From a virus (Duplodnaviria > Caudoviricetes): a stretch of 64,000 nucleotides of DNA. Every line of letters begins with the position of its first letter. The first letter of the stretch is position 1. The notes below the pieces were generated by a model. That model was not told where the DNA came from, ran no database searches, and worked only from the letters and a program-made list of their open reading frames with translations. Location of the stretch: positions 9,536 to 73,535 of IMG/VR virus record IMGVR_UViG_2568526092_000002. The stretch is one strand, 5' to 3'. Below are positions 1,431 to 63,778 of this stretch, piece after piece. The position numbers were made by a program, and so were the translations under genes.

Positions 1431-1490
1431 CAGCAAAGAAGTACATCAAAGAACCTTAGTGGGCAGGATTAGAACCTATCCAGGCTACTA

Positions 1491-1832
1491 TTAAATAGTT
1501 GTGTTATTGGTAGGCTCTGTTGCCTCCTCTTTCACTTCTTCCGCTTTTAATGTCCAGTATGCCACCTTTGTAAAGTGAACCCCTGATACCTCACCCAAGA
1601 TGTTTTCTACGGCGAATACTTCACCTTCCTTTTGATACTTACGGAATATTTTCTTGTATTCATCCTGTACGTCTTTAGCCGCCTTGAGGATTATTTCCAC
1701 AGGCTTGTCTACGCCATCCTCGATAATCTTACCTTTAAGCTTAGGGTCAATCTCGAACCAATCGACCCTCTTAACTTCACCATTGTCAAGGAAAAAATCA
1801 GCTGTTATCTGAACCCTCATTCTTAAAGTCAC
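1491..1832 (-). CDS. Hypothetical phage protein
   Basis: 113-aa charged ORF overlapping the upstream gene; plausible composition. Confidence 0.65.
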   Translation of the reverse strand: MTLRMRVQITADFFLDNGEVKRVDWFEIDPKLKGKIIEDGVDKPVEIILKAAKDVQDEYKKIFRKYQKEGEVFAVENILGEVSGVHFTKVAYWTLKAEEVKEEATEPTNNTTI

Positions 1833-2154
1833 CCTCTTCGTCTATATACTGGTAGTCTTTAAAGTCTTTAATGTGAATCTCAATGCCCTCCATCCATTCA
1901 CCTTGCTCGTTAAGCATCTGTTCGATCTCCATGAGTTTCTGAAGGTTGTACTTGCTAACCGGAGGAACGATAGATTCCTCGCCCTCGTCGTACCGAACCC
2001 ACCACCTGCGGACAGTCTCGATAGTAAATGTCTGATTGATGAAGTTTCCGCAGTGACTGCACCACAGCACCAACGCCTTATCACATTCCATCTCTTCAGG
2101 TGTAAAAGAAGAACGTGCCCCACAGTGGGGGCACTTGTTTAAGAATCCTATCAT
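1798..2154 (-). CDS. Zinc-ribbon hypothetical protein
   Basis: CPHC...CSHC pair near the N-terminus; GAGGTG RBS upstream. Confidence 0.7.
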   Translation of the reverse strand: MIGFLNKCPHCGARSSFTPEEMECDKALVLWCSHCGNFINQTFTIETVRRWWVRYDEGEESIVPPVSKYNLQKLMEIEQMLNEQGEWMEGIEIHIKDFKDYQYIDEEGDFKNEGSDNS

Positions 2155-2242
2155 TTATGTCACCTCTCTATAATGGTCAGCGTATGATTAGCGGGAGTTA
2201 CAAAGTCCTTTCTTCAGGTCTTCAAAACTAGTTTTAAACCTT

Positions 2243-2554
2243 TTACTTATTTGCGCTCTTGTCTGCTAAGCTGTGGGAAGGTTTAATGAAGGAAGCAAGC
2301 AATGCAATACCTGCAAAGATTTGCGGTAAAGCGGAAGCGGGAATTGTTGTGTGGAAAATAGCACTCAGCGTACCAGCCACGAATGAACCCGCAATGAGTT
2401 TTAACCCGAAGCCGATAACCCAACCTACCAAGAGAGCAAACAAAGTTTTAAGTAGAATAATACTAATAATAATTGCTAACGCTCCTGCAACTCCGACTGC
2501 TCCTGCCGCACCAATACCCAAACCTGCCAATAACGCTCCGACTACTTTTTTCAT
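2243..2554 (-). CDS. Small membrane protein
   Basis: About three hydrophobic Gly/Ala-rich helices; ATGA overlap with the upstream gene. Confidence 0.7.
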   Translation of the reverse strand: MKKVVGALLAGLGIGAAGAVGVAGALAIIISIILLKTLFALLVGWVIGFGLKLIAGSFVAGTLSAIFHTTIPASALPQIFAGIALLASFIKPSHSLADKSANK

Positions 2555-2769
2555 TGTCGAATCTCTCCCTTAAAGTATTTGAAGTAGTCATGCTCATCAC
2601 TTAATGGCTCGTACTTGATTCCGTTATCGGCGGGATATGGCTCAGTGTGAATTACTTTTAATTCCTGAATCTCTTTAGGTATTCCATTAGGGTAAGCCGC
2701 ACAGGTCATGTTCTCCCGTTCGTCCCTATTAAAGTGCTTGCAGAATATGCAAGGAATTGTAATATCCAT
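2551..2769 (-). CDS. Small Cys/His protein of the type seen downstream of MuF-type toxin domains (candidate immunity/partner)
   Basis: Probable start MDITIP at 2769 (GGAGAGGGG RBS); motif CxxCxH...CxAYPxGIPxEI...HxxPxxxDNGIxYE. Confidence 0.6.
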   Translation of the reverse strand: MDITIPCIFCKHFNRDERENMTCAAYPNGIPKEIQELKVIHTEPYPADNGIKYEPLSDEHDYFKYFKGEIRQ

Positions 2770-2966
2770 TATAAAAATCCCCTCTCCATTGCTGCCAATT
2801 CCATCTCTTTCGTATACGTGACTGATTGAGTTTCTTCTATATAAAGGAGCTTCACTCAGGACAGGCAAGGCAACGTAAGACGCTTTTAGGAAGTTTGCTC
2901 CCTCTTACAGAGATATAGTGCTCGTTATTAAAGAGATGATTTTATGAAACACATGTTGGCACATTG

Positions 2967-4085
2967 TTACCACCCCTCACATTTGAATCCACCGTACTGC
3001 TCGTACCACTCCCATATCTTCGCATCAATAGGCACTCCGGTTATCTTGGCGGTGAATGTTTCAGGCATCATTTCAATAGGAAACCACTTGGTCGCATAAT
3101 TACAAAGGTGGTTCGCAATATACGTCGATTCCGCATTGGTGAGGATTGTCTTCGCTCCGTAGTTGTCAGGGTCAAGGGCAGAGTACGTATAGAACTGTTG
3201 TGCTCCAATGTTGTGATAATGAAGCCAGTGCCCAATCTCATGAATGACCGTCCTCAGTTTATTAGGAGAAGACTTCTGTCCAGTATCGTATTCCATCTGA
3301 GCGATGACATCCGCGTTGGCGTAGTCATACGTCTTACTTACAACAACCTTTCCAGAGGAAGGGTCAAAGTATCCATTCGCACCATTACCGTTCTCAATCT
3401 TAATTGTTAGCTTATGCTTCTGAATCATATCAGCGAAGCCGCCGCAGGTATTCAGGAGTAACGCCAATGCTTCGGTCACATAGTTAGCGGCATCAATCTT
3501 CTTAGCGAAGTTTACTGACACTCCTAAGTTACTTGCCCACTTCTCAGCTTCAACAACGGAAGTAAACGGTTGCCACGTAACAGGAAGCTGTATGCCACTT
3601 TCCGGTGCGTCCGGTGGTTGTTGGTCTTCGGCTGGCTCTTCGGGCGGGTCAGGGTAGTTACCTAAGTCAGTTGTTCCGGTGAGTACAAGGTTAACGTCAG
3701 GCTCAGTAAGGAAGTGGAACATCAACTCAAGGTTCTTTCCGTCTCCGTGTGGTGTGTGGTACTCGAACAGGAACTCTTTACCTGCCACCACTGGATGCGC
3801 TACCTGTAAGTACAAGCCTTCCTCGTAGTTCTTGCAATGAATGTTCTTGGCGAGTACCTTTCCGTCCACAGTTAAATTCCAGTAGTCTTCGACGGTATTC
3901 ATGTTCGTTCTGATGGATACCGCATAGAACTCAAGGTCATGGGACATTGTAAAGGTATCTTTGATCATCCTATCCCCGTTCGCCTTAGCAGGAACCGTGA
4001 TTGCCCTGCCCACAAAATGAGGGTGAGGTTTGGTAGGGTAGTAGGGTGGGTCTAGTCGCCCACCGACAGCATAACGATCGAACAC
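2967..4085 (-). CDS. Fusion protein: tail-module paralog domain + Pro/Glu linker + HExxH zinc metallopeptidase
   Basis: N-terminal ~125 aa share GGRLDPP[YF]xPTK, DYWNLxV, KNI[HY]xK and EG[LM]YL with ORF 47303..47689; C-terminal HEIGH zincin motif; GAGGAGG RBS. Confidence 0.8.
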   Translation of the reverse strand: MFDRYAVGGRLDPPYYPTKPHPHFVGRAITVPAKANGDRMIKDTFTMSHDLEFYAVSIRTNMNTVEDYWNLTVDGKVLAKNIHCKNYEEGLYLQVAHPVVAGKEFLFEYHTPHGDGKNLELMFHFLTEPDVNLVLTGTTDLGNYPDPPEEPAEDQQPPDAPESGIQLPVTWQPFTSVVEAEKWASNLGVSVNFAKKIDAANYVTEALALLLNTCGGFADMIQKHKLTIKIENGNGANGYFDPSSGKVVVSKTYDYANADVIAQMEYDTGQKSSPNKLRTVIHEIGHWLHYHNIGAQQFYTYSALDPDNYGAKTILTNAESTYIANHLCNYATKWFPIEMMPETFTAKITGVPIDAKIWEWYEQYGGFKCEGW

Positions 4086-4640
4086 TACTGACCCTCCTCA
4101 GTCTTGGAATCCATTATCTCTGTAATCACCCTAAGACGGAACCCACAGGTTGCTTTGAGGTCCTGGAACTCTTCCATAAATTTATCCTTGTGATGTTTTA
4201 CAAGTGCCAAGCGCGTAAAAGCATCCTTGTTTTCACGGTATCTGGCCTTCTTTCCAGCAAGATGCTTACCCCTGTGTTCGTGGTATTGCTTAATCCCCCT
4301 TATTCTCTGGTCACAACAAGTGAATAGATGATTACTGCTACATATTTTTTGGAAGGTCTTACCGCTTTTCTTGCAAACAAAATCCTGTTTTACTCTGGGT
4401 TTGTAAGGCGCAACGAAGGTCATACCCCCTATTTTTTTAAAGTCAGTTGTCAAGTTAGACCAATTAATAGTTGAAATTTTGGGTATCACTTTATCTACTC
4501 CCATCTGTCGGAGAAGTTTGTATAGCCAAGTACGGAGGGTGAAGATACCTTCTCTTTCCTATGGCTGGCTTTGTTCTCATATCTTTACGAATTCCTATGT
4601 AATCTCTGAGCATTCTCCAACCTTGACCAAGTTTCCTTAA
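4085..4640 (-). pseudogene. Probable pseudogene; 139-aa 3' remnant still open
   Basis: The same frame continues upstream of 4504 with protein-like sequence broken by TAA, TAG, TGA and TAG stops. Confidence 0.4.
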
Positions 4641-4667
4641 CCATAATACTTACTGAAGATGATGGAA

Positions 4668-4850
4668 CTAATCGTCTTCACTGACGCCCTTCTTCAGAAA
4701 AACACCGCCAACAGAGACGTATCTTAAACCAGCGTATTTTTCCTCAGCTACATCGTTCGAGTCATCCCAAAGGGCATTCATCTTGTTTGCGTCCTTGATG
4801 GTGTTACCGCCCATGGTAAGCAGAATCTCTTGCAATGGCTCAGCACTCAT
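4668..4850 (-). CDS. Small hypothetical protein
   Basis: 60-aa ORF with GAGG RBS, in tandem with neighbours. Confidence 0.5.
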   Translation of the reverse strand: MSAEPLQEILLTMGGNTIKDANKMNALWDDSNDVAEEKYAGLRYVSVGGVFLKKGVSEDD

Positions 4851-41190: not shown

Positions 41191-43011
41191 TTACGAGTTC
41201 TTCTTCAACGTTTCTTTCAGGATGCCGAGACCAATTGGGGCAAACGGCGACATGTTAGCCAATGTGAACGGACTGACAGGTGTGTCTGCCAACGTGTAGC
41301 GGTAAAGTTGCTTGTACTCGTAAGTAGCAAGGACTTCCGATTCAGCCACAGGTGCTTTTCCGTCAAGGAAGTTGATTGTCTTCGTCTCGATATCAACTGT
41401 GTAGTCTGTGCCGAGCACTTGGTCTACGCAATCCACCTGAACTTCCAACTTAAACGGAGTTCCGTCATCCTTCAGAGAAGGCGAGTGCGCCATATGGAAG
41501 ACTTTGTTTACGCCTGTGCCCTTGCCCACTTCTTCATGGTCGGATGTCTCCACTACTTCAAGTTCATCGAGTTGGGAAATGTTCTTAGGGTGTACGGCGT
41601 AACATTCATCCAGCTTACCTACAAAACCATCATTCGGGTGAACAATGTACATCGGGGAGATGTGATACTTACCACTATAAACCGATGGATTAAATCGGGA
41701 CTCACCCGCATCAACGTTCTTATCGTGCGTTATGAACGCGAGGTAATGCTGTTGGTAGTATGTACCACCGATGGACTGTTGAAGCTGTACCCCGCGGTTT
41801 CCGTTGGATGTGTTGTTACCGTAGTCGACGTAAATCGCACCCAACTTCATGTCTTTCTTCCATACAACTTCGTCTGCTTCCCGACAACCAGAGATAATGA
41901 CATTGTTTTTGCGAGGGGACTTACCAAGAGTCGTTAGCCGCCCGATGTACAATGGAGCGAAGTAAGTATTCTCAGCGCCCGGAGTAGGATCTGGACGGAA
42001 AAACATTACGATTCGGTCTTTGGTCACATTCCCCCAATAGTACATCGTACTATCACGTTGCCATCCTCTATCAAAGTTCTGCAACGGAGTGAAGGACAGA
42101 GCCGTTGGCAGGGATGGATAGATGTAATAAATGGATGAGTAAACAGCATTCATTAGATCATTCGGTTTATCGGGGTCAAAGTTCTTGACTGTGATGTCAC
42201 CGTAATTCAGCGTTTGGTTTCCAGTGGCATTCAGAATTCTGATGTAGGATGCGTGTAATTCTGCGCCTGCGTCTGGTGCTTTGCCAACGAACGTTACACT
42301 ATTTTTAGTGTAGTCAACTGTGTATAACGTTGAATCCTGTTCAACCTGATTCACATAAACCCTTACAGTGTCCGCTTTAATCGTCGCCACCGTTGGGATT
42401 TGGAACAACTTACGAGTTCCATCACCATCCGGTAAAATGGATTCAGGGTCACCAACGACTACAGAACCGCTAACACCTTGTACGATTCGTTCGCCCCGCA
42501 CATCATCGAATGTGAAGAAGTACATGCGCTTCACTGGCTGAGGTGCAATTGGAGATGGGGAGTAGTTTGCTGTAATTGCGTCAGTCGGCAATGGTGCAGA
42601 CGTGAATGTGATGATACCGTTCGTTTCATCAAGAACGTAGTCTGTAGAAGCAACAGCGTTACCGTTCTTATAGACGATGACAGAATCTCTGAGTACAGGG
42701 AACACTTGGAAGTGGAACTTCGTGTTTAATGTCTCGTTTTCAATCAACGCACCAAGTACGGAGTTCTGAGAAATAAACTCTTGCTCGCCCAAGGTTGGAT
42801 TGCTTTTCTTGCCGTATCCGTAAACCATGCCGAAGTTCCGCATTTGGTTGTCCGAGCCGAGAGACCGGAACAAGCGGACATCTGCGAACTTCTGACCGTC
42901 TTGAGATACGGAGCGGTACTTTATGAATGTATCCCATCCCTTGGAGTTAAACAGTGCTTCAAGGTCTTTAGGGAATAGCTGAATCGTGGAATCTCCATCA
43001 AACCAACTCAC
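41191..43011 (-). CDS. Virion structural protein, paralog A of the PSxYSGKxH family
   Basis: NPSVYSGKYHISPMYIVHP motif; three inserted V..DG......DY.VD...G.ITF..AP beta domains. Confidence 0.7.
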   Translation of the reverse strand: MSWFDGDSTIQLFPKDLEALFNSKGWDTFIKYRSVSQDGQKFADVRLFRSLGSDNQMRNFGMVYGYGKKSNPTLGEQEFISQNSVLGALIENETLNTKFHFQVFPVLRDSVIVYKNGNAVASTDYVLDETNGIITFTSAPLPTDAITANYSPSPIAPQPVKRMYFFTFDDVRGERIVQGVSGSVVVGDPESILPDGDGTRKLFQIPTVATIKADTVRVYVNQVEQDSTLYTVDYTKNSVTFVGKAPDAGAELHASYIRILNATGNQTLNYGDITVKNFDPDKPNDLMNAVYSSIYYIYPSLPTALSFTPLQNFDRGWQRDSTMYYWGNVTKDRIVMFFRPDPTPGAENTYFAPLYIGRLTTLGKSPRKNNVIISGCREADEVVWKKDMKLGAIYVDYGNNTSNGNRGVQLQQSIGGTYYQQHYLAFITHDKNVDAGESRFNPSVYSGKYHISPMYIVHPNDGFVGKLDECYAVHPKNISQLDELEVVETSDHEEVGKGTGVNKVFHMAHSPSLKDDGTPFKLEVQVDCVDQVLGTDYTVDIETKTINFLDGKAPVAESEVLATYEYKQLYRYTLADTPVSPFTLANMSPFAPIGLGILKETLKKNS

Positions 43012-43099
43012 GATAAATCACCTCTCGTTTGGAATTACCCTGCCGGTTATCCTGACTAAATATACTTATTTAATAGGAATTTATGCCAGGGCTATATTG

Positions 43100-44578
43100 T
43101 TATGGGGTTGTAGGCTGTGTCGGTGTAGGTGTCGGAGTGACCTCCACGCCTTCATCATCTACAGTATTTAAGTACAATCCAATACCCGCTGGACGGTACT
43201 GAGTTCCCGGCTTACTTGTCAGTGGGGATACACCCTCAACCAAGAAGTAACGGAATACATCGAATTCATCTGGGCAGTGATCCTTCTTCACACGCAGTTT
43301 GTTTGCGTTAAAGGACAGCGCCGATAATGCGATGGTGTCTTTCAGTGCTCCCCGCACCCCTTCTTCTGGATGAACCACGTACAGCTTGGAAGTGTGAACC
43401 TTACCGCTGTATCGGGAAGGGTTAAAGGAATACTTGTAAAGAGGATTCTCAGCGTTGTTCCAAGCCCGCGGATAGTCTCGCTTGCCATCCTGCGAAGTAC
43501 GCATTGGAGGGATGGCATTGGCTGGTGCGTTCCAAGACAGGTAGTACGCCTGATATCGAGCACCGAGTTTACCACGGCTGACCATAACGTTGTCCAATCC
43601 GTTCGCAGGATTCTTAGGGTAGGTTTTCATCAGCGGCATGATGTTCGGTTGTCTCTTCGTCGTATCATCGAAGTCGTACTCAGCGATAGCAGTCAACCCC
43701 GCTGAACCTGTCTGTGTCACGATAGGTACACTACCTGCGAACATTGCGTAGGCATCATCACCTTCTTCAATGGCATCCAGCTTACCGAAGTAGAGAGGAA
43801 TGATTGGAACAAGGTTTCCTTCCGGTGCAGGTACGTTGTCACATTGGATGATGAAAAACAGGCTATCTCCGTTCAAGTGACCTTTAATAGAGATTTCTGA
43901 GTCAGCCCACCAGTTCGTATTTTGAATCGCATAGTTGATATCGTCGTCGTGGTATTTTTCCAAAAGGTTGGTGCGAAGACCAGCTTGCATGATTGGAGAC
44001 TGCATCCGATTCCCTTCAGCTTTAGATACAGTGAAGGTAGCCGTCGAGCCTGTGCCTACCCAACCTGCCGCTTCTACTTCGATATCCAGAGCCGCCCGTT
44101 TAAGGTCGCCCGAGTTAATCCAAGGCAGTGTTACGTCAGAGTAGTTAGGCATAAGTCCCGCCAAATTCTCGACCATATAGAAGTACAGAGTCTGAGGGGA
44201 ACGATACTTACGGAACTCGTTTGTAGCCCATTCTGAGAACACCGCAAGTGTTGCAGGAGCCGGAGCTTTAGAATCAGGTGACTTGTTTAGCTTCCGAAGT
44301 TGACCAAGGTTCTGATTCCATGTACCAAGAACAGCAACGCCAAACATCTTGCCCGCAGTGTTCTTGTAAATGAAGTGCTCCGCCACGTAGATTGGAATGT
44401 CGGCCGAATCAAGACCGGTGTACGTGCTTCGCATAATACCTGCATCAAAAACCACTTTCTTAAAATTAGCGACCGTATCCCATCCTTGAGTAGCAAGTAG
44501 GTCTCCTAACCGAGGTTGAATATCCTGTTCCGTTACTTTCGGGGTAAACGATGCAGGAGTTGTGTCGATAAATGGCAT
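43100..44578 (-). CDS. Virion structural protein, paralog B
   Basis: NPSRYSGKVHTSKLYVVHPEEG; GARYQAYYLSW. Confidence 0.7.
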   Translation of the reverse strand: MPFIDTTPASFTPKVTEQDIQPRLGDLLATQGWDTVANFKKVVFDAGIMRSTYTGLDSADIPIYVAEHFIYKNTAGKMFGVAVLGTWNQNLGQLRKLNKSPDSKAPAPATLAVFSEWATNEFRKYRSPQTLYFYMVENLAGLMPNYSDVTLPWINSGDLKRAALDIEVEAAGWVGTGSTATFTVSKAEGNRMQSPIMQAGLRTNLLEKYHDDDINYAIQNTNWWADSEISIKGHLNGDSLFFIIQCDNVPAPEGNLVPIIPLYFGKLDAIEEGDDAYAMFAGSVPIVTQTGSAGLTAIAEYDFDDTTKRQPNIMPLMKTYPKNPANGLDNVMVSRGKLGARYQAYYLSWNAPANAIPPMRTSQDGKRDYPRAWNNAENPLYKYSFNPSRYSGKVHTSKLYVVHPEEGVRGALKDTIALSALSFNANKLRVKKDHCPDEFDVFRYFLVEGVSPLTSKPGTQYRPAGIGLYLNTVDDEGVEVTPTPTPTQPTTP

Positions 44579-44626
44579 TTAAATAGCACCCCTTTACTTA
44601 TTAGCTTTATATAGCAAGTCCTGCTG

Positions 44627-47287
44627 TTACACAGGACAGTTTACCAGGTATTCCCACGACGAACTTGACCCCGAACTGGAGGACATGACCACCTTTATTT
44701 GTGTTACGCCGCCAACAGGACTGTATTGAAATTGGAGTGAACCTCCGTTAGATACTTCCATGTTGGTGCTGGCAAGCAACTGGTTCTGATAGTAAACATC
44801 CATACGGTCAGCTACCCCATACATGTTGTAGGTGATAACGACTCGTCCAGATGAATTGCCCATCTCATGCAGTTTCTCCGTATAAGCACCGCCGCCAGAA
44901 TCGTTCAGCTTACCGCACTGCAATGTATTAGCCGGTGGGGGTGGTGGAGGTGGTGGGGGCACGTACTTGGCAGTTACCGTTATGGTTGCCGTAGCCGTTG
45001 CCTGCTGACCTATTTCATTCCACACCGTAAGCTTGACCGAATACGTGCCGACATTGCTGAACGTAAACGTTGCATTATCGACTGTATACAAGCCCTTTTT
45101 CACGTCACTCGTCACTTCCCACCTGTAATTCGTAATAGGGGAGTGCTTACTGTACAGCGATGTGAACTTGATTGACGTGTCCTCTTCTATGCTTGAATAA
45201 CCAGGGTCGATTGACAGAATCAGAGCTGGAGATTCAGGCGGTGCAGGAGGAATCTCAGGAAGAGTGTACCCCGCCTTTAGAATGCCGAGAGCGGCAGGTC
45301 TGTATGGCGTTGCAGGCCTCTTTGTCAGTGGCGAAATTCCTTCGACCAAGTAGTAAGAGTAAACCTCATACCTATTCTCGTCGTCACAGTAATCTCTCAC
45401 AGCCTTTAACTCGTCACCATTCATTATAGTTAAGGGAGAGGTTAAAATAACGTTTCGCAGTGTTCCGAACGTACCATCTTCAGGATGAACCAGAAGTGCA
45501 CGGGATGAATGGGCTTTCCCGCTGTACCTTGACGGACTGAACTGGTACTTGTATTGCTCGTTCATGTAATCTTTCCAAGCCCTTGGGTGCTTACGGTTGT
45601 CAGCATTTTCCCTTAGCGGTGGCATAGAATTAGAAGGAACATTCCAAGACAGGTAATGCGCCTGATACCTTGCACCGAACTTATTTCGCTTGACCATAAT
45701 GGAGTCAATACCGTTACTTGGGAAGTGCGGATACTCCTTCATAACAGGAAGCAAAACCTCTTGCTTGATGCTTGCATCGTCATAATTAAATTTACCAGAC
45801 TGCTTGAGAGCGTCTTCTACAGTAGCCCCGTCCTTGTTGTATGCCGTCCCTGAGAATAAGGCAGAAGGTGTGCCTTCAGCGTTTCGATTGGTCTCGATAT
45901 GAATCTCAAGAAACATCCGACCGGATACCGGAGTGTAGCCACTCACTCCATCTCCACTCACTGCTTCAATGGTCACAGAGGACATGCCCTCGATTCCCGT
46001 GATATCGAATTGCCCCATCAACTGAGCATCGTTCCTGTTACTTGTCGGCTCTACCGCCCCGATGGTATTGAACTTCCCTATCTCCTGTCCTGCGATGGTC
46101 AGCGTGACAGCTTCGTCAGGCATGTCGCCGTCCGTGTCACCCATTAGCCATACTTTTACATATGACCCCGCATTAACCATTGGCTTGCCTGAGATAATTG
46201 TGGAAGTCTTCGTCTGCTTCCGGTAGAAGTCGAACGTGATATCCCGATTAATAACCTCTTCTGTCAAGCCGTTAACATCGAAGTCTCCCATGTAGAGAGG
46301 AATCGCAGGTACGGCGTTGTCATCCCAAACGGGAGCAGTGTCCGCAACTATAATCAGCATGAGCGACTTACCGTCCACGAACCCTTTGACGAACACCTTA
46401 CTGTCGTCCCACCAGTTCGTAAATTTTACGTCAACGAAGGCAATCTTCTCTGTGTGCTCAAGCTGAGGGATTCTTGTATGGGACGTGACTATTGGCGACT
46501 GGTACATCTGAGGGAAGGAATCAGTAATTCGTGACTGAAGAGCGTTTGTATTATCGTCCAGCCCCCACATGCTTGTCTGCACTTCAACATCCAAAGCCAC
46601 CCGTTTCAATTCATTGACGTTCTCCCACCCAACCAACATCTTCCCGTTTCCAATCCACTTCTCAAGCTGGTAGAAGTAAAGCGTATGCCGCTCAAAGAGG
46701 GCATCTTCGTTAGCCTTCTGAATCGCCCAAGAGAATACGCCGCTGTCCTGCGGTGTTAACTGAGTACCGTAATCGGCATTTTTGTCATAGATTGCGAATG
46801 GTACTTTACAGTCCGTCCGTCCAATCTGCTCATTAATGTGAGCCAGCATTGCCATGCCAAACAGGTTTCCCGATATATTTTTGACGACGATGTGCTTGGT
46901 CACATAGAAGTCGAAGGTGTCTGCTGACCCGACCGTGCTGTAGTAAATTGCTACCTGACCGGATACCCCTGCTTCAAAGGTAATCGTGATGGTTTCGTCA
47001 GTGTTCTTGACCGCTATGTAATAGGATGTTGGAGCAATCTCTCCATCAAGGAAGATGTAGTAATCATCGTTCAGTACCTTAGGCAAGTCTATTTCAGGGT
47101 TAGCCATCGGAAGGTAGAAACGCTTGATTGTTGGCTTGGTCAGCTTGTTGGAGTAGGTTACCTTAGTAAACTCAGCTACCTTTGACCAGCCGTTGGTTGT
47201 CATGATACCAGCAAGCCCTTCTAGCAAAAACTCTTCATTTATGGTCGTGTCGAGCCAAGGCGTTGGCTGGTATGACGTATCTGCCAT
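44627..47287 (-). CDS. Virion structural protein, paralog C, with PKD-like and extra C-terminal beta domains
   Basis: SPSRYSGKAHSSRALLVHPEDG; GARYQAHYLSW; PKD-like Y.W...FTFSNVGTYSVKLTV; poly-Pro linker. Confidence 0.7.
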   Translation of the reverse strand: MADTSYQPTPWLDTTINEEFLLEGLAGIMTTNGWSKVAEFTKVTYSNKLTKPTIKRFYLPMANPEIDLPKVLNDDYYIFLDGEIAPTSYYIAVKNTDETITITFEAGVSGQVAIYYSTVGSADTFDFYVTKHIVVKNISGNLFGMAMLAHINEQIGRTDCKVPFAIYDKNADYGTQLTPQDSGVFSWAIQKANEDALFERHTLYFYQLEKWIGNGKMLVGWENVNELKRVALDVEVQTSMWGLDDNTNALQSRITDSFPQMYQSPIVTSHTRIPQLEHTEKIAFVDVKFTNWWDDSKVFVKGFVDGKSLMLIIVADTAPVWDDNAVPAIPLYMGDFDVNGLTEEVINRDITFDFYRKQTKTSTIISGKPMVNAGSYVKVWLMGDTDGDMPDEAVTLTIAGQEIGKFNTIGAVEPTSNRNDAQLMGQFDITGIEGMSSVTIEAVSGDGVSGYTPVSGRMFLEIHIETNRNAEGTPSALFSGTAYNKDGATVEDALKQSGKFNYDDASIKQEVLLPVMKEYPHFPSNGIDSIMVKRNKFGARYQAHYLSWNVPSNSMPPLRENADNRKHPRAWKDYMNEQYKYQFSPSRYSGKAHSSRALLVHPEDGTFGTLRNVILTSPLTIMNGDELKAVRDYCDDENRYEVYSYYLVEGISPLTKRPATPYRPAALGILKAGYTLPEIPPAPPESPALILSIDPGYSSIEEDTSIKFTSLYSKHSPITNYRWEVTSDVKKGLYTVDNATFTFSNVGTYSVKLTVWNEIGQQATATATITVTAKYVPPPPPPPPPANTLQCGKLNDSGGGAYTEKLHEMGNSSGRVVITYNMYGVADRMDVYYQNQLLASTNMEVSNGGSLQFQYSPVGGVTQIKVVMSSSSGSSSSWEYLVNCPV

Positions 47288-47302: not shown

Positions 47303-47689
47303 CTATTTGAGCGTTTGGTAGTTTGCCCATACTACCTTAGGCTTGCCGCCCTCATTAAAGAACTCAAAGTGAAGTTGTGTTCCCTGCTTACATGGGATAA
47401 TCGCCGTCAGGTACATCCCCTCCGGTAAATCCTTCGTGTAAATGTTCTTACATACCAGCCGTTCCCCTACGTACAAGTTCCAATAGTCTCTTGCTTCATA
47501 GTTGGATACGCCGACTGCAACGGAAAGCAACTCACAATCCTCTTGAATGGTCAACTTGTGTTCGACCTTGCCCGCCATTGGGGACTCTATCATAATCCCT
47601 TCAATGTACGGGTTCGTTTTGGTAGGCATAAAAGGAGGGTCGAGTCTACCGCCTACCAGATAACTCGCAAAATTTGCTCCGCTAGACAT
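47303..47689 (-). CDS. Small tail-module protein (paralog of the N-terminal domain of 2967..4085)
   Basis: GGRLDPPFMPTK...DYWNLYV...KNIYTK...EGMYL. Confidence 0.75.
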   Translation of the reverse strand: MSSGANFASYLVGGRLDPPFMPTKTNPYIEGIMIESPMAGKVEHKLTIQEDCELLSVAVGVSNYEARDYWNLYVGERLVCKNIYTKDLPEGMYLTAIIPCKQGTQLHFEFFNEGGKPKVVWANYQTLK

Positions 47690-48194: not shown

Positions 48195-51100
48195 TTATCC
48201 TAATTCTGATAAAGACTGCCACGTCAACTCGAGGTAATTGACGATGCCATCGCTGTTACCGACGATTCTGTTCCCCTTAACCAGGAAGTAATTGGCAGTG
48301 AACGTATTGGAATCGTATACGTAAACAGAGTCAAGCAGTTCGATTAACGGATTACCTTTGACGACTACGTTCTTCGTCCTTGCCTGACGTTTGTAATCAA
48401 AGAAAATCTTATTGGCTACGTCCTCCTTCAAGTCTCTCAAGGAGTTTCCATCGATCTCTTCAATCCAGTCCAACTGAGCGCCCGCCGTGCGGATATTACC
48501 CTTGGTTGCGATAATCAGAGACTTGTCGAAGAAGTGTTCCACGATACCCGCTGTACCGGAAATCATCAAGTGATTTCTGACACGCGAGTAATCCGTAGAA
48601 GAAGTAACTTCCAGTAGATTCTCTCCATCAATGAACTCCCACTTCATGCCCGCTACCATAGCCCAGTCTGGTGAATCGAGGAAGTCCATCTTCTCCATTC
48701 GAAACGTCCCATACCTGTCGCAGTAGGCACGGTAAGGAATATCTTGAATAAGGGACTGTACGGCATCTGAAGCGTTCGTACCTATTGGGAAGGATACACT
48801 TGCCACGAACGGATTCTGCCAGCCGCCCACTTCCATAATATTCTCCTGAGTCACGGCCTCAAGTTCTCCGCTCTCCTTATTAAATTTCATGAAGGTGTTC
48901 TTCCCTTTGTTCACGTCGATGTAAACTGTGTCCTCAATCACGTAGTCAGGGTTGCTCATATCCTCCGAATGAAACTTCCAAGCGCTCATTCCTGCATGGA
49001 CAACAATGTCTTCTACAATGCTTGATTTAATCCAGGAGAATGCCCCGCCATCTCCTGCATAAGCTTCTTCCGGCGGGTAATGCATAGGCTTGTAGAAGAT
49101 AAATTCCTCAAGCATGTCGTACCTGTCCACACAGATAAACGAGACGGTCTTCTCGTCAGAGTTCTCCGTAATTTCGCCTTTAATCATTCCAGTGAATACA
49201 CGGACAACTTCTTCCCCGTATCCCGCATAAATCCTGATTGGAGTGTACTCGCTAATAACATGTCGCAGTTCTCCTTCTTCGTAATAGCTCAACGGAGACT
49301 TGTCCGTCTTAAATGAGTCAGGGAACTCTGGTCTACGCTCCCAAGATGGAGAATAAATACCCGAAGAGTTGTCCAGCGTTAGCCGTGCGGTGCTGATAGT
49401 CGTATCAAGGTGGGTGTTGATTTCCCAACTCATTACATCTTTCTCAATGGTGTACATGTCTTCATAAACGAAGTCCCCAACTTCATACCACTTCTCGTCA
49501 TACGTGTCACCGATGGCAGTAGCTAGTTGCTCGATGGCATAGTCGTTGGCAGCGTACTTCACACTGTCGAGATACATCGTTCCATCCGTCACTGCAAACA
49601 GAATTCTGCTTTGGTACGGATAGTCGAATGCCGCCCCACGGATTCCGGTGTTAACCCAGACATCATTTATCTTCACATATACATCGATATCCGTTTGGTC
49701 ATGGCAGACTACAGTGTACTCGATAAAATCAGAAGTCGTGTTTAGCTTATACGTGCCGCCACCAGATGTATAAATTTGGTCATCCTTGATGTTCAGAAGA
49801 AACCCCTTCGTTCCATTACTAATAACTAACTTGCCGCTGGTACCGGCGGCTGTCTTCAGGCTAAAGTTAATCGTAAACGGAAACTTCTTGATTTTACCTA
49901 ACCGCTCGATACCTGCTTCGCCTCCGCTGGTTGAGATTGCTTGATAATCTCCCTTGTCCTTCTGTACAACTGTGCTGTACGGTGTCCATTTGTTGGCACT
50001 GTTCATTTCATCTTCAAAGTCCCACATCGCCTTCGACTCAATGGTCTCTACATCGAACTCTTTCGCTCTGAGCCACAAGATACCGAACTTTCCTCTCGAT
50101 GCTTTCGAGGAATTGGCGAAAGTGAATTTCACCACGTTATGTCCTTTGGGCATCGGGATGGAAGGTGGGTATGCCACTCCGTTTTTAGCGCTAACCCCGT
50201 TGATACGAACTACTTCGTAATCATTAACTGTGACAATAATTGTGTCATCCAGTTCAAGGTCAGAGAAGTATGCCCAGCCAAGGTTTCCTGCCTTAAACCA
50301 ATCGTGCTCGAAAACCAGCGTTTTTGCCTGCCCTGCCCCGCCCGTTCCGTTAAATCCGAGAACGTTCATCGAAGTCTTGTCATCAACAACGGTCATTTGC
50401 ACTGCACCGTTTGTCTCTGTGTACTTCTTGACATCAAGCGTAGTCTTCTTGGTCGTAAAATCCTTAAAGTAGGTTTGTTTAGTGGTTGTCCTGTTGTATT
50501 GGTACGTGACGATTTCCTTATCGATGCTGGCATCTCCAGTCGAGTCTGCCGTTCTTGGTTTACCATCGCCCCAAGACTTGACTCTTACAACAACGGGCTG
50601 CCTTCCAAACTTGAGGGCATTCGCCTTCGTATCATAAAGAATGTCAATTCGGTTGCCTTTGATATCCCCGCCCGTATCATCTGCAAGATACTCTCCCCAA
50701 CTCGTTCCATTGACAATCAGTTCCACTTTGCTCTTCAAAGGGATGACAGAGGGATCTACCGCAATAATCTTCCAGCTCTTCCATGTACGAACGTCTGTAC
50801 CGCCCCGTGTGATTCCAATACAGCCGGGGCAGTCTGCTACATATGCCGTTGCTTCCATGTTGTATTCCACGTAGGAGGTCGAGTCTGCCATTACCCCTGA
50901 AGCGTCCATTAGAACAGAAGCATCCTGAATGTTCCTTGGGTCAATTTTCTTGCTTGCTGTCTGAATAGTTTTCTTGCCCCGAAGGTACGGTTCAGGATTC
51001 TGTGCTACGTCGTTAAATCGTACTTCAAAGTGCAAGTGTGTTCCGTCACCGCCACCACTGGAGATGGAGTGTCCGGTATTACCTCCAAGACCTACAAGAC

Positions 51101-51683
51101 CACCTGCGTTAACCTTGTCCCCCACACTGACACTGATTTTGTTTAAGTGGGCATACCTTGTCTGCCATCCGTTTCCGTGATTGACGTAGACGACTTTACC
51201 GTACCCTCTCAAGGTGCTGGCGATGGCTACTGTACCTGTCCACACAGCGTATACAGGGTCGTTCATCGCAAGGTCAAGGTCAATCCCTTTATGCTTCTTC
51301 CGGGAACAGCGAGGGTCTGTCTCGAACCAGTCGGTGATATACATCCCGTTGATGGTACGCTCCCCATTCTCCTTCCCATGCATCGTTGAACTAGCTTTTA
51401 TTGGCATTGAGAAGTCTGCGTTTCTCAGGTCGGTGCTGGTATCAACCAGCGTACCGTCAACGTAATTCGTAATCTTCTCCGCTTTGTCGATGGATAGCAT
51501 ATCATTCACTGCACTGTCTACCACGTACTGGACTGCATCGTATTTTCTACGGAAGCCCCGCACGTATGATGTTTTGTCCAACTCTACGATTACCTTCGGC
51601 TCGTTCCCTAGCGCGTTTACACGCTCCATAATTCCTTGTAGCAATTGCCTTGAAGGGTAATTACCGTTAGATACATAAGCCAC
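48195..51683 (-). CDS. Tail-associated lysin/hub protein with M23 endopeptidase and 3D domains
   Basis: M23: HKGID...YAHL...HLHFEVR; 3D: EATAY...IAVDPSVIPL...DDTGGDIKGNRIDIL; C-terminal tail-hub-like region. Confidence 0.9.
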   Translation of the reverse strand: MAYVSNGNYPSRQLLQGIMERVNALGNEPKVIVELDKTSYVRGFRRKYDAVQYVVDSAVNDMLSIDKAEKITNYVDGTLVDTSTDLRNADFSMPIKASSTMHGKENGERTINGMYITDWFETDPRCSRKKHKGIDLDLAMNDPVYAVWTGTVAIASTLRGYGKVVYVNHGNGWQTRYAHLNKISVSVGDKVNAGGLVGLGGNTGHSISSGGGDGTHLHFEVRFNDVAQNPEPYLRGKKTIQTASKKIDPRNIQDASVLMDASGVMADSTSYVEYNMEATAYVADCPGCIGITRGGTDVRTWKSWKIIAVDPSVIPLKSKVELIVNGTSWGEYLADDTGGDIKGNRIDILYDTKANALKFGRQPVVVRVKSWGDGKPRTADSTGDASIDKEIVTYQYNRTTTKQTYFKDFTTKKTTLDVKKYTETNGAVQMTVVDDKTSMNVLGFNGTGGAGQAKTLVFEHDWFKAGNLGWAYFSDLELDDTIIVTVNDYEVVRINGVSAKNGVAYPPSIPMPKGHNVVKFTFANSSKASRGKFGILWLRAKEFDVETIESKAMWDFEDEMNSANKWTPYSTVVQKDKGDYQAISTSGGEAGIERLGKIKKFPFTINFSLKTAAGTSGKLVISNGTKGFLLNIKDDQIYTSGGGTYKLNTTSDFIEYTVVCHDQTDIDVYVKINDVWVNTGIRGAAFDYPYQSRILFAVTDGTMYLDSVKYAANDYAIEQLATAIGDTYDEKWYEVGDFVYEDMYTIEKDVMSWEINTHLDTTISTARLTLDNSSGIYSPSWERRPEFPDSFKTDKSPLSYYEEGELRHVISEYTPIRIYAGYGEEVVRVFTGMIKGEITENSDEKTVSFICVDRYDMLEEFIFYKPMHYPPEEAYAGDGGAFSWIKSSIVEDIVVHAGMSAWKFHSEDMSNPDYVIEDTVYIDVNKGKNTFMKFNKESGELEAVTQENIMEVGGWQNPFVASVSFPIGTNASDAVQSLIQDIPYRAYCDRYGTFRMEKMDFLDSPDWAMVAGMKWEFIDGENLLEVTSSTDYSRVRNHLMISGTAGIVEHFFDKSLIIATKGNIRTAGAQLDWIEEIDGNSLRDLKEDVANKIFFDYKRQARTKNVVVKGNPLIELLDSVYVYDSNTFTANYFLVKGNRIVGNSDGIVNYLELTWQSLSELG

Positions 51684-52744: not shown

Positions 52745-53365
52745 TTAGTACCCCCTCAGCAACTTGTCTACGTGTCGGTACGTCCGCATAAGGAACGTAA
52801 TGGATTCTGCTCTTGTAGCCGCTTCGTCCGGACGGAAGTAAACAACAGACTCCCCGTCTGCTTCCCAGTTCGTTGCGATAAGTCCAAGCTGTTGCATATT
52901 GTCGATATACTTGTTTGCCCAATGATCTTCGATATCAATGAACTCTGTCATGTACTTGTATTCAAAATCTTGCTTGCGGACAAGAGACATGCCGATGGTT
53001 ACGATGTACTTCGTTTCCATCTCAGCGGTCTTAATATCGGGTTCTCCGGTCACGATGCCGATGTAAACTGTACCCTTCTCGTCGTAATACTTATGTTGAG
53101 AGCCGATGAACTGAAGCCAGTCGGCATATTCCTTCTTAGAATAAAACAGCATGGTTAGGGTAGCGTTATAATGAGACGTTCCGTTCTGCACAAGTCCCGC
53201 AGAAGATGCCAAGGTCTGGTTGACATGGGTCTTCAGGTAAGGCGCCGGCGGTTTGTACTCCGTAATCAGCTTTGCTTTGACCTGATTAAACTGGACTCCG
53301 TTGTCGTAAAACAGTTTCTTCTTATATACCGAATCCTCTGACAAGAGGTTATTTTGTTGTGTCAT
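52745..53365 (-). CDS. Distal-tail-position protein with a C-terminal SLH domain
   Basis: First gene after the tape measure; FIDIEDHWANKYI...LGLI...FRPDEAATRAESITFLMR. Confidence 0.75.
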   Translation of the reverse strand: MTQQNNLLSEDSVYKKKLFYDNGVQFNQVKAKLITEYKPPAPYLKTHVNQTLASSAGLVQNGTSHYNATLTMLFYSKKEYADWLQFIGSQHKYYDEKGTVYIGIVTGEPDIKTAEMETKYIVTIGMSLVRKQDFEYKYMTEFIDIEDHWANKYIDNMQQLGLIATNWEADGESVVYFRPDEAATRAESITFLMRTYRHVDKLLRGY

Positions 53366-53387: not shown

Positions 53388-53428
53388 ACTCCCCATCTCA
53401 TTATAAGACGGGGAGTGGTTTCGCTAAC
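53388..53428 (-). promoter_or_regulatory. Terminator hairpin overlapping candidate promoter GTTA-N17-CTTATAATG
   Basis: ACTCCCCGTCT-TATAATG-AGATGGGGAGT on the minus strand (53388-53416); the -10-like element forms the loop. Confidence 0.65.
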
Positions 53429-59642: not shown

Positions 59643-60701
59643 TTAGCAATCTTCCGCAGATACAGAACCAACTTCGTAACGCTTGATAGAACCAAGCTTA
59701 CCGTCCGGACGTTCAGGGTCGATTACAGTCAGCGTTACGCTATGCGTGGACGCTTGTTGACGTTGTGCGTCGAGAGTGAAGTTGGACTTCACACGGCATT
59801 GGAACAACTCAGTTTGATAACCTTGGATTGTACCGTCCTTCTGCTCGAACTGACCATCGTGAACAACGTGTACTGTCAACGGCATGTCCTTGGTTGTGAT
59901 ATCGAGGATATCAACAACTTCGTTCCGCTTGTAGTTGACATAAATGTTTACATCATTGAGGGCCGAGTTGAACTTCAGAATGCCGCCACTTACTAAGTAC
60001 TGGTCTTCAGTAGGAGTAGAGCTAGTCGTTTTCTTCAGCAATTTGTTACCTTGCAGAGTACGAACAGAAATCTGAGGGTCAACGTTCAGGGATGCTCCGT
60101 ACACAAGATCAACAGTAAAGTCTGAGCCGTTCTGTTTAACCGTGTGCTTTTCTTCCAGCACCCACACGAAGCCGTCAGGGTCTGGTGTAATCCCAGCCAG
60201 TGCCGCAGCGTAAACGATGACAACCGTTTTACCTGCCAGCGCCATATCGAATACGACATCCTGACCCGTTACCGTAACGTCTGCACTCAGGTCAGCGCCG
60301 CCCACAGCACCCTCGAAAGACTTAGGTGTTGGAGAAGCAAGAGCGACTTGAGTAAGTTTCGCTTGATACGGAGAAGCGGAAGGGACTACAAAGGTCTCAG
60401 TGACCATGCTGTACGCCGAACCAGAAATTCCTTCACGGAGTTTCGAGCCAGTAGCCAAACGTACAAGGTTAAGGTCGAACTTAGCGGATTCCGCTGTGAT
60501 ATCAATTGTCTTCTTACGAAGCAACGTATCCAGTGCTACGCTAGAGTCACCGCCCTCAATGTCCTGCATGTCCAGCTGAATATCCAGACGCATGTTGTTC
60601 AGCGTACCGATTGTAACGAGGTCGTCACAGTTCGGGATTTTCGCCATGAACTTACCAGCGCCCTTAATCAACATTTTTTTGTTCTTAGTAATCTTACTCA
60701 T
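59643..60701 (-). CDS. Major tail (tube) protein with internal insertion domains
   Basis: Position before the chaperones and tape measure; beta-rich; no sheath gene nearby. Confidence 0.75.
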   Translation of the reverse strand: MSKITKNKKMLIKGAGKFMAKIPNCDDLVTIGTLNNMRLDIQLDMQDIEGGDSSVALDTLLRKKTIDITAESAKFDLNLVRLATGSKLREGISGSAYSMVTETFVVPSASPYQAKLTQVALASPTPKSFEGAVGGADLSADVTVTGQDVVFDMALAGKTVVIVYAAALAGITPDPDGFVWVLEEKHTVKQNGSDFTVDLVYGASLNVDPQISVRTLQGNKLLKKTTSSTPTEDQYLVSGGILKFNSALNDVNIYVNYKRNEVVDILDITTKDMPLTVHVVHDGQFEQKDGTIQGYQTELFQCRVKSNFTLDAQRQQASTHSVTLTVIDPERPDGKLGSIKRYEVGSVSAEDC

Positions 60702-61163: not shown

Positions 61164-61167
61164 ATCA

Positions 61168-61432
61168 TCACATCCTCTTATGAATGCTTCGTATACCAAT
61201 ATAAGTTGAAATGGGTATATTTCTAACCGCCCTGTGTACTGCGTTGTCCACCATCGAAATGGACTTATTAAGGCTATATTCGAACAGTGAGACGGTGGAA
61301 TCTCTACCTAAATGGTTCTTTTTCATTCTATTAGGAGCGCTCCTGACGTTGGATTCATGGATGTTGTCGCCCAAGTCTACCCACTGCCCATAGGGTCTTT
61401 AGAAGCTAAGTAGCTGGTGTGTGTTCTATCGA
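61168..61432 (-). pseudogene. Decayed neck/tail-completion-like gene
   Basis: Short broken frames (…PYGQWVDLGDNIHESNV…IPISTYIGIRSIHKRM*) at the position where such a gene normally lies; stop overlaps the RBS of the next gene. Confidence 0.35.
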
Positions 61433-61465
61433 TGACCATCACCTTCCATCCCAACTGCCCTTTCT

Positions 61466-61804
61466 TTACTTGATTTCGATAATGGATGCCACAGGCTGGC
61501 TACCCGAAGTCATAAATAGCTTCCGAGCCTTGAAAGCCTTTTGCTCCTTGAAAAGCAAACGTTGCTCTTCATTGCCCACTCGGAGATTCGGCTTGTCACT
61601 AACATAGATATCTCCGAAGCCCAAGTTCTCGACAATCAAGGTTGTATCTTCTTCTTGAGCGTTATAAATGAACTGACCGAAGATAGAAAGTTGTTGGGTG
61701 AACTCTGCAACCACATCGCCCTCCAATCCATCCACGCTAACCGTCTCGGTCTCTTTCTCAGGGGCTTTAGGAGTCCTCTTCCGTTTGTTTGTTGTTCCTG
61801 CCAT
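61466..61804 (-). CDS. Hypothetical protein, first intact gene of the tail operon
   Basis: 112 aa, GAGGGGAG RBS. Confidence 0.7.
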   Translation of the reverse strand: MAGTTNKRKRTPKAPEKETETVSVDGLEGDVVAEFTQQLSIFGQFIYNAQEEDTTLIVENLGFGDIYVSDKPNLRVGNEEQRLLFKEQKAFKARKLFMTSGSQPVASIIEIK

Positions 61805-61954
61805 TGTTAAAATGCTCCCCTCATTGTGATATGTAATAATTCAAACCAAGTAAAAAGTCGTCCACTAATTTCTGACCAGACTTGTGTTCAGACGGGTAAA
61901 CATGTTCTTTCAGCATCCCAAACTTCTTACCACCTTTCTGTCTTTGTCACAAGT

Positions 61955-61984
61955 CATTATAGGTAGGTGGAGTCTCGCTTTAAC
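61955..61984 (-). promoter_or_regulatory. Candidate late promoter GTTA-N17-CCTATAATG heading the tail operon
   Basis: Read directly. Confidence 0.6.
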
Positions 61985-62090
61985 CGAAAGCTTTTAAAAA
62001 CAAATAGCGTGACCCGCAGGGTAACGCCACGCTTTGCATAGTTTTACTCAGTGAGTATTTTCACTACCCCTTGCCAATGTTTTATTATTC

Positions 62091-62135
62091 TATATATCTT
62101 TCTTTTATATATCTTTCTTTTATATCTCTTTATAC
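62091..62135. repeat. 15-bp tandem repeat TATATATCTTTCTTT x2 plus a partial third copy
   Basis: Copies at 62091-62105 and 62106-62120, degenerate copy from 62121. Confidence 0.8.
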
Positions 62136-62349
62136 GGTGTAAACTTTACAATACAGAACTCACAACAAATGCACTTTTTACACTTCATAGGGGTCTGTAT
62201 GGTAAACCGTACACTTCAGACATAACATGCAGTACGTATCTGGCGGCGGGTGCTAGATATTGTATAAAAAGTGATATATGAACACGTATATAATCTACTA
62301 ATCTTGTGAATAATGTCTCTACCCACAAAATGAGAGGTAGTGAGATTAC

Positions 62350-62628
62350 ATGAGAGCAAGCACGTACGGCGTGGTAAAGGACGTAGAAAACGAGAGGTAT
62401 TTACTGGCGGCTGACCTATTCGAGAGAGGGTTGAATGCTTCGGCTATTACCACATACCTTGCGGTGACGAAGCTTCTGAGCGATGGTAGGACGGAGTTCC
62501 CGTTGCAAGATGAAATCGTAAAGCTGACTAAACTGAGCAGGAAAACAGTTGTCATATCGTTACAGGCTTTGGAGGATTGCGGACTACTGGTCTACGTTTA
62601 TACCAAAAGAAACAGAGCCACGGCGTAA
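62350..62628 (+). CDS. wHTH protein (HTH_36-like), possibly truncated
   Basis: EFPLQDEIVKLTKLSRKTVVISLQALEDCGLL; GAGAGG RBS; the only plausible intact plus-strand gene. Confidence 0.65.
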   Translation: MRASTYGVVKDVENERYLLAADLFERGLNASAITTYLAVTKLLSDGRTEFPLQDEIVKLTKLSRKTVVISLQALEDCGLLVYVYTKRNRATA

Positions 62629-62862
62629 GTTGCCTGTGGCTTTGTCTTTAGTTTCTGGATGCCCCCATGAGGGAAGGCATTGGCCAGTGTTCCAGTTCTT
62701 CAGGGTCTTTTGCAAAGTCCATGTTCAAGTCTTCCCATTTGATGTTCGGGTTGATTTTCCACGATGCCCGATAGATGACATTATCTCTGGAAACTCAGGG
62801 TCTTGTCCCTGTTTGTACTTGTACATCTCTTCCGAATCGGCAAATTCAGCTATATCAATCCA
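62600..62862 (-). pseudogene. Putative terminase large subunit relic
   Basis: Frameshifted fragments WIDIAEFADSEE and IYRASWKINPNIKWEDLNMDFAKDPEE, recalling the [ST]WE[VI]NP...ED...F..DP motif of large-phage TerL proteins (recalled, not searched). Confidence 0.45.
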
Positions 62863-63776: not shown

Positions 63777-63778
63777 TG

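Follow-up and report, generated by a model that had tools for sequence, protein, structure and literature searches.

The locus described here raises the question of why a phage should join a relative of one of its own tail proteins to a metallopeptidase, and what the small cysteine-rich protein encoded by the adjoining gene does alongside it. The locus lies in a 64 kb stretch of DNA, hereafter the window, which forms part of a 73.5 kb IMG/VR 'provirus' record (IMGVR_UViG_2568526092_000002). An open reading frame (ORF) with a GTG start codon, found at 2967..4085 on the minus strand (as are all the window features given below), translates to a 372 amino acid (aa) protein composed of an N-terminal anchor domain, a linker and a zincin domain; the next gene encodes a 72 aa protein, here termed B72. 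In a first-pass annotation these two genes were read as a candidate tail-delivered toxin-immunity pair. We consider it probable, on balance, that the 372 aa protein is a particle-borne protease effector, resembling anthrax lethal factor (LF) and the Pro-Pro endopeptidases (PPEPs), which is carried on a tail anchor, and that B72 is a general accessory module.

The 372 aa protein matches PHROG 28013, 'virion structural protein', over its full length (E 3e-208), and proteins of the same length and architecture were found in 24 homologue clusters. The closest sequenced phages, Brevibacillus phages Jenst and SecTim467 (76% protein identity), are complete siphoviruses that also carry the fusion; their heads measure 87 nm and their tails 286-415 nm (PMC4909266). 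An AlphaFold2 model (mean pLDDT 86) divides the protein into a peptide of residues 1-14 (pLDDT below 50), a nine-strand beta-sandwich spanning residues 21-140, a disordered linker and an alpha/beta domain of residues 170-372. As read from the sequence, the linker is a flexible, Pro/Glu-rich segment of about residues 141-165 (3591..3665) containing two Pro-Pro dipeptides; its residues 150-157 again have a pLDDT below 50, and its length varies among homologues. The features on which the first-pass annotation drew in this region, namely the Pro/Glu linker, the HEIGHWLH sequence and the adjoining 72 aa ORF, are all present. Comparison with the provirus relative L007 gave ratios of nonsynonymous to synonymous substitution (dN/dS) of 0.063 for the N-terminal domain and 0.067 for the zincin; both halves of the protein are under strong purifying selection.

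The anchor domain (residues 1-140; 3666..4085) begins with a conserved N-terminal peptide, GGRLDPPYYPTK, which is followed by the nine-strand beta-sandwich. It had been noted to resemble a stand-alone 128 aa protein encoded in the tail-tip module (47303..47689), and the likeness proved to be genuine: BLASTP aligned residues 2-117 of the fusion with residues 7-118 of the 128 aa protein (35% identity, 51% positives, E 2e-23), the two domains being true paralogues, and both match PHROG 5955 (E 1e-25 for the anchor domain and 3e-50 for the stand-alone protein). The motifs that the two have in common, GGRLDPP[YF]xPTK, DYWNL, KNI[HY] and EG[LM]Y, are conserved columns across the whole anchor family (alignment A6), nine diverse members of which share invariant P17, K19, D50, E52, D67, W69, G90, K117 and L126 residues. 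The presence of the same conserved N-terminal peptide in both paralogues suggests that they have the same docking partner in the tail tip. A word-based search with the 128 aa protein retrieved no relatives of greater length. Members of the anchor family elsewhere bear other C-terminal domains: the check for such homologues proposed in the first-pass annotation retrieved Ig-like and other extensions (in the metagenomic phage locus L020), and the anchor domain hence appears to be a modular N-terminal unit.

On the minus strand the tail genes run in the order major tail protein, chaperones, tape measure protein (1735 aa; 53424-58631), 206 aa and 347 aa proteins, a 1162 aa M23/3D Tal-like protein (48195-51683), and then proteins of 154, 128, 886, 492, 606 and 1289 aa. 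ORF128 of phage 0305phi8-36, a homologue of the 128 aa protein, was detected in virions by one mass spectrometry peptide, and the label 'low copy virion structural protein' given to Jenst genes was copied from this one-peptide result. From the gene order and this peptide it is reasonable, if indirect, to regard the 128 aa protein as part of the tail module. The stand-alone paralogue is intact in 18 of 18 relatives, and that both paralogues remain intact in elements without head genes favours their assignment to the tail rather than to the head. Two further observations concern this module. The three consecutive genes after that of the 128 aa protein, encoding the 886, 492 and 606 aa products (window 41191-47287), are paralogous virion proteins matching PHROG 9258 and PHROG 11431. 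The 206 aa gene directly after the tape measure (window 52745-53365) has a product sharing 81% identity with Jenst gp155, a protein annotated as containing an S-layer-homology domain, which hints that the tail tip may bind a secondary cell-wall polymer.

The C-terminal domain (residues 166-372; 2970..3590) is predicted to be a gluzincin with an LF/PPEP-like fold. When it was compared with 48,161 Protein Data Bank (PDB) representatives using VIA-align, the top match was the catalytic domain of anthrax LF (1yqy_A; Z 11.1, 169 residues aligned, root mean square deviation 4.0), followed by PPEP-2 (6fpc_A; Z 7.9) and PPEP-3 (9g0j_A; Z 7.8). Foldseek likewise returned LF matches to the zincin domain, at a probability of 0.98, and the structure matches in BFVD include proteins named 'MuF-like minor capsid protein', 'Metalloprotease', 'Lethal factor' and 'ART-PolyVal-like' protein. 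By its modelled fold, and not by its sequence, the zincin belongs with the M34 gluzincins.

The HEIGH motif (H282, E283 and H286; 3228..3242), assigned as the zinc-binding and catalytic motif, is invariant in 19 close homologues, 11 diverse zincin domains and 81 remote relatives. It is followed by E338-x3-E342 (3060..3074), the predicted third zinc ligand helix, upstream of which Y330 is a candidate catalytic tyrosine. In the 19 aligned homologues H282, E283, H286, H289, Y330, E338 and E342 are all invariant, as are Y165, E173 and E177, in the numbering of the domain alignment, in the 11 diverse domains; the consensus of the 81 remote relatives, VSxYAxxxPxEFVAExFA, agrees with the same Tyr and ExxxE region. 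We take these residues to correspond to Y728, E735 and E739 of LF, on the basis of the general layout of the LF active site rather than a residue-level superposition. The catalytic motif set is complete, the ligand roles being those that we infer from these motifs.

The distribution of the zincin extends well beyond this lineage. A zincin profile searched against 1.84 billion representatives (E <= 1e-3) found 95 relatives, only one cluster of which had the anchor-zincin architecture; in the others the domain lies at the C terminus of proteins of 200-3000 aa. Pfam recognised Phage_Mu_F in seven of the 81 relatives scanned, a further protein (P0051) is a Pfam-confirmed MuF-zincin fusion, and the PHROG labels assigned to the relatives include head morphogenesis, minor head protein, portal and DNA pilot, with some matching a PHROG labelled 'head maturation protease'. 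At one locus (L016) the portal gene is followed by that of a 617 aa protein with the zincin at its C terminus. The first-pass annotation had linked this type of peptidase to MuF loci, and the MuF proteins and the portal-adjacent protein agree with that origin; metallopeptidases occur in 20% of MuF toxins (Jamet et al. 2017, PMC5576092); no peptidase types were retrieved from the supplement of that study. Since MuF, minor-head and portal proteins are the main carriers of the family, the head carrier has, as had been proposed, been replaced here by a tail-module paralogue.

The two nearest outgroups of the zincin, both from metagenomic phages (L017 and L020), lack MuF and lie inside tail modules. 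In L017 the carrier is paralogous to the virion proteins of PHROG 9258, which include the 886 and 492 aa products of the window, and its gene directly follows a homologue of that encoding the 128 aa protein. In L020 the zincin sits on a different N-terminal part, and it is the next two proteins that have the anchor domain at their N termini, continued by the Ig-like and other extensions. The tail-module carriers onto which the zincin has been put thus number at least three, and comparison of the families indicates that its carriers have been swapped between head and tail proteins.

The possibility that the 372 aa protein is not a particle component has to be judged against these findings. It might be a cytoplasmic phage protease, with the N-terminal domain a duplicated protein-binding fold used, for example, for targeting host or phage proteins. 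Its gene lies among replication and early-type genes, with a ligase and a DNA polymerase as neighbours, 43 kb from the tail module, and overlaps the stop codon of a small upstream gene. However, the N-terminal docking peptide and the core motifs are held in common with the tail-module paralogue, the two nearest outgroups hold the cassette in tail modules beside homologues of the 128 aa protein, and the rest of the zincin family is found on virion proteins. Hence a purely cytoplasmic role seems to us very improbable.

The B72 gene (2551..2769; PHROG 33375, E 4e-44) encodes a CCCH zinc-module protein and begins 197 nucleotides (nt) downstream of the fusion gene, with GGAGAGGGG as its ribosome-binding site. 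Residues C7, C10, K11, C23, A25, P27, G29, I30, P31, I34, H41, D48 and E54 are invariant, an AFPxGIP motif being conserved throughout alongside C7, C10, C23 and H41. No Pfam or NCBIfam family was matched, a word-based search retrieved members of the same lineage only, and the AlphaFold2 model (pLDDT 54) was too poor for a fold search. In all 12 related loci B72 comes directly after the zincin gene, though the flanking genes vary. It occupies this position in L017 as well (42% identity, E 8e-19), and likewise in L020, the MuF locus L023 and L024, and is thereby found after zincins on at least five carriers. In L017 and L020 it retains 40-45% identity, against 24-30% for the zincin. Jenst has an extra 69 aa gene, gp076, between the fusion gene and B72, no remnant of which was found in the 197 nt gap of the window.

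The fusion-gene orthologue of five genomes ends at the linker (158-163 aa), and it is in exactly these five that both the zincin and B72 are absent; a zinc-ribbon gene directly follows the shortened anchor gene. This is a clean cassette boundary. Taken with their occurrence on MuF or minor-head, tail-module and anchor carriers, it suggests that the zincin and B72 form a mobile two-gene cassette.

The association of B72 is nevertheless not restricted to zincins. Outside this lineage, 43 distinct homologues were found in IMG/VR, and in 21 of these loci the preceding protein ends in an HExxH zincin, identified by a broader profile and a motif check. In seven others (L055, L056, L057, L069, L071, L072 and L079) it is a MuF-like protein ending in an 'HNHP' RadC/JAB-like domain, recognised by the motif HNHPxG...S..D only, as Pfam found nothing in these domains; in at least five it is a fusion of MuF to an ADP-ribosyltransferase (ART), four of which were verified by Pfam. 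In one MuF-ART protein (L064:437-2923) a weak Intein_splicing match, below the Pfam cut-off (E 4e-6), was observed between the two domains at residues 317-611. The CCCH module, of 50 aa, is also found fused N-terminally to Phage_Mu_F in a 424 aa protein present on four contigs (L073:2872-4143), N-terminally to an ART in a 367 aa protein (L055:4431-5531), by a weak match to a 2H phosphoesterase (L095:2902-3885), and as a tandem pair (L115:2743-3171).

It is here that the first-pass annotation parts company with the data. The paralogy of the N-terminal domain, the type of peptidase, the exchange of carrier and the loss of head genes all stand, but the immunity role of the small gene does not. 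On the toxin-immunity interpretation the zincin would be a tail-delivered antibacterial toxin and B72 the cognate immunity protein that binds it. This would account for a small ORF conserved directly downstream of the zincin gene, has an experimental precedent in a MuF toxin for which a cognate immunity protein is known (Apk2, IapK, Aph1; PMC12226406), and suits a cytoplasmic protease that would probably need restraint during assembly. However, B72 homologues follow ART and RadC-like fusions as well as zincins, are joined to MuF or to an ART or occur in tandem, and are better conserved than the zincin. As an immunity protein would be expected to co-vary with the fold of its toxin, and not to occur in such fusions, an immunity role for B72 is unsupported, and we think it unlikely that the pair is a polymorphic toxin with its antidote. 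Instead, remaining constant whilst the effector changes and being fusible to either carrier or effector, B72 has the character of a trafficking or accessory module. On these comparisons its likeliest role is that of a general accessory to effectors loaded into virions; loading adaptor, escort chaperone and DNA-end tether are guesses as to what such a module might do.

A second alternative accepts the tail location and differs in where the enzyme acts. Mounted outside the particle, the protease might cut S-layer or wall-anchored proteins of the host and so open the way to the receptor or the wall, much as tail depolymerases do. PPEPs, the nearest folds after LF, cut cell-surface proteins of Paenibacillus and Clostridioides, and the Paenibacillus and Brevibacillus hosts bear S-layers. 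The S-layer-homology annotation of the Jenst homologue of the 206 aa tail protein, the long flexible linker, which suits a tethered enzyme, and the M23 wall peptidase already present in the tail all fit such a role. Most relatives of the zincin, however, are carried by capsid-internal MuF, minor-head or portal proteins, which have no access to the surface layer before ejection. B72, moreover, is also the companion of RadC-like and ART enzymes, whose targets are cytoplasmic, and the zincin is missing from five related elements. We regard a surface enzyme as possible, though not likely.

It has also been argued that the zincin-like peptidases of virion-delivered proteins mainly process their own carrier polypeptides (Iyer et al. 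2017, PMC5512222), and the zincin could similarly act in cis or on particle parts, for example by cleaving the Pro-rich linker of its own protein or by trimming proteins of the tail as the particle assembles or fires. Besides that proposal for polyvalent-protein zincins, such a role could draw on the relatives that match a 'head maturation protease' PHROG and on the pairing of two Pro-Pro dipeptides in the linker with a PPEP-like fold. Yet there is a single cargo domain and nothing else to release, Pro-rich linkers are common, there is no conserved cleavage site beyond YPDPP, and tail genes are intact in the five elements without a zincin. The zincin is hence dispensable for tail assembly, and a processing function strikes us as improbable. 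An essential tail-maturation protease, considered as the principal explanation, was ruled out by the same five elements.

On the reading that we favour, the 372 aa protein would be a zinc endopeptidase with an LF/PPEP-like fold, predicted to be active and tethered by the flexible Pro-rich linker to the beta-sandwich. The shared peptide GGRLDPP[YF]xPTK, probably unstructured, and the sandwich would together dock at the site of the 128 aa subunit in the tail tip, the protease would be present there in a few copies, and these would cleave a host protein upon contact with, or penetration of, the target cell. The zincin/B72 cassette would have been grafted onto the tail anchor in a lineage comprising both complete siphoviruses and headless chromosomal elements.

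Several results count against this reading. A structure search with the N-terminal domain returned generic jelly-roll matches only, at Z scores of 7-10, a range typical of common arrangements, and VIA-align found no specific match among the PDB representatives to a known baseplate component. The virion label of the Jenst homologue reached the 372 aa protein by homology through the N-terminal domain only. Pfam matched the 372 aa protein to DUF4344 and M48 only, at E 0.03-0.05, and did not match ATLF (PF07737); NCBIfam had no match for any of the three proteins. PDB sequence and profile searches gave nothing significant, the link to LF and PPEPs being one of fold only. The joint absence of the zincin and B72 from five genomes is probably the result of one indel event, making it weak as independent evidence of their association. 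Finally, the position of the fusion gene among replication genes, 43 kb away, means that the timing of its expression may differ from that of the tail genes.

The question of the particle itself turns on the head genes. These were sought with Jenst protein queries, as the Pfam capsid and terminase families miss even the head genes of Jenst. In the window tblastn located a remnant head module at 61171..62826, consisting of pieces of the terminase and portal and a partial gp161 homologue. Only residues 246-288 of the terminase, split by a frameshift, and residues 113-134 of the portal remain, as scraps of 20-40 aa at 61.8-62.8 kb (in the 59643-64000 region of the window). The Jenst capsid protein, gp166, gp167, gp162 and gp163 had no tblastn match in the window, nor was a capsid-protein match found in the whole 73.5 kb record. 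By contrast gp160, the major tail protein and all the genes downstream are intact, including the tape measure and the tail-tip genes. When the Jenst capsid protein was sought in 15 bacterial genomes (Paenibacillus, Brevibacillus and 'Bacillus sp.') and two proviruses, Jenst itself serving as positive control, the only match was one 31 aa scrap; the major tail protein is an intact frame of 350-375 aa in 18 of 18. Headlessness thus appears to be a conserved state across these genomes, and the element is a candidate for a conserved, non-contractile tailocin-like element that has kept a large replication module.

The first-pass annotation held that an effector loaded on the tail would fit a headless particle. 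The loss of head genes alongside an intact tail agrees with this, but the fusion is not peculiar to such particles: it is carried by the headed phages Jenst and SecTim467, hence it must be older than, or independent of, the loss of the head. A further possibility is that Paenibacillus and Brevibacillus chromosomes keep the element as a domesticated headless, non-contractile tail particle with the LF-like protease on its tail tip, the CCCH protein being a hitherto unrecognised universal loading or escort factor for zincin, RadC-like and ART effectors on head and tail carriers alike; taken as a whole, we find this rather doubtful.

The element is found in bacterial chromosomes: an identical copy of the 128 aa protein is present in Paenibacillus vandeheii, and near-identical copies in other Paenibacillus chromosomes. 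The distance between the genes for the 372 aa and 128 aa paralogues varies, from 43 kb in the window and G001 to about 23-25 kb in G002-G004, and in Jenst the two are on opposite strands. The element has been rearranged between hosts, with both the spacing and the order of the two anchor paralogues differing. Genes for a partition protein of the ParM type and an initiator of replication lie near the left end of Jenst (L022, Jenst 1469-4288) and suggest that the complete phages of this lineage persist as plasmid-like prophages.

Close to the fusion gene, B72 is followed by a gene for a 103 aa multi-pass membrane protein (2243..2554; PHROG 30257), the first 4 nt of which overlap the end of the B72 gene. 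It is found in the closest relatives and Jenst only, being absent from L007-L013 and L015, and therefore seems to be a variable accessory outside the conserved pair. The next gene, encoding a 118 aa zinc-ribbon protein (1798..2154; PHROG 35899, E 2e-56), is a conserved downstream neighbour present in all the related loci. A scan of 2100-4700 for promoters and terminators found nothing above chance.

Of the systems already described, those of temperate phages known as MuF polymorphic toxins (Zhang et al. 2012, PMC3482391; Jamet et al. 2017, PMC5576092) are similar in having a virion-protein carrier at the N terminus, a variable enzyme at the C terminus and a small downstream ORF, and the zincin is homologous to the C-terminal domains of Phage_Mu_F proteins. 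However, no MuF domain (PF04233 / TIGR01641) was matched in the 372 aa protein (P0001) using Pfam, PHROGs or NCBIfam; its carrier is a beta-sandwich tail-module paralogue of PHROG 5955, its gene is not beside the portal, the head module having decayed, and B72 is not specific to one toxin, being shared with ART and RadC-like fusions and fusible to MuF. Judged by these comparisons, the protein is not a member of the MuF family, yet would work like one and shares its effector domain. LF and the PPEPs (MEROPS M34) are the best structural matches, with the same succession of HExxH, a tyrosine and an ExxxE helix, but the zincin lacks the protective-antigen-binding and substrate-docking domains of LF and is fused to a phage anchor, and there is no sign of a eukaryotic target. 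Polyvalent proteins (Iyer et al. 2017, PMC5512222) likewise comprise several domains and are delivered with the virion, MuF being one of their hubs and an LF-like zincin the domain that they most often contain; the fusion described here differs in having two domains only and a carrier from the tail module rather than the head, and no mention of a small zinc-module partner gene was found in the text of that study.

Two further comparisons concern the particle. The element resembles F-type tailocins and other phage-tail-like bacteriocins in being chromosomal, in its intact siphovirus-type tail and decayed head and packaging genes, and in its conservation across species; it differs in keeping a large replication module. 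To our knowledge, tailocins kill without enzymatic cargo, and almost all known virion-delivered effectors are proteins of the head interior, such as MuF fusions, T4 Alt and the polyvalent proteins. In the 'evolved' PAAR, VgrG and Hcp proteins of type VI secretion systems (T6SS), a paralogue of a structural subunit bearing a C-terminal toxin replaces the plain subunit at low copy. The coexistence of plain and extended forms of a subunit in one genome is similar, but this is an analogy only, as the folds are unrelated and the machine in this case is a non-contractile siphovirus-type tail.

What is new is the joining of an LF-like zincin to a tail-anchor paralogue, together with a CCCH module, and the retention of this combination in headless elements. 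If the favoured reading is true, phages and tailocin-like particles would be able to load enzymes onto their tails through subunit paralogy, as T6SS do with PAAR and VgrG, and an effector cassette usually found inside phage heads could move onto tails. One of the lineages with a tail-module carrier has lost its heads, yet its tail and effector are kept under strong purifying selection. The small ORF found after MuF toxins would likewise have to be reread, with at least the widespread CCCH family representing a constant accessory module and not a toxin-specific immunity protein.

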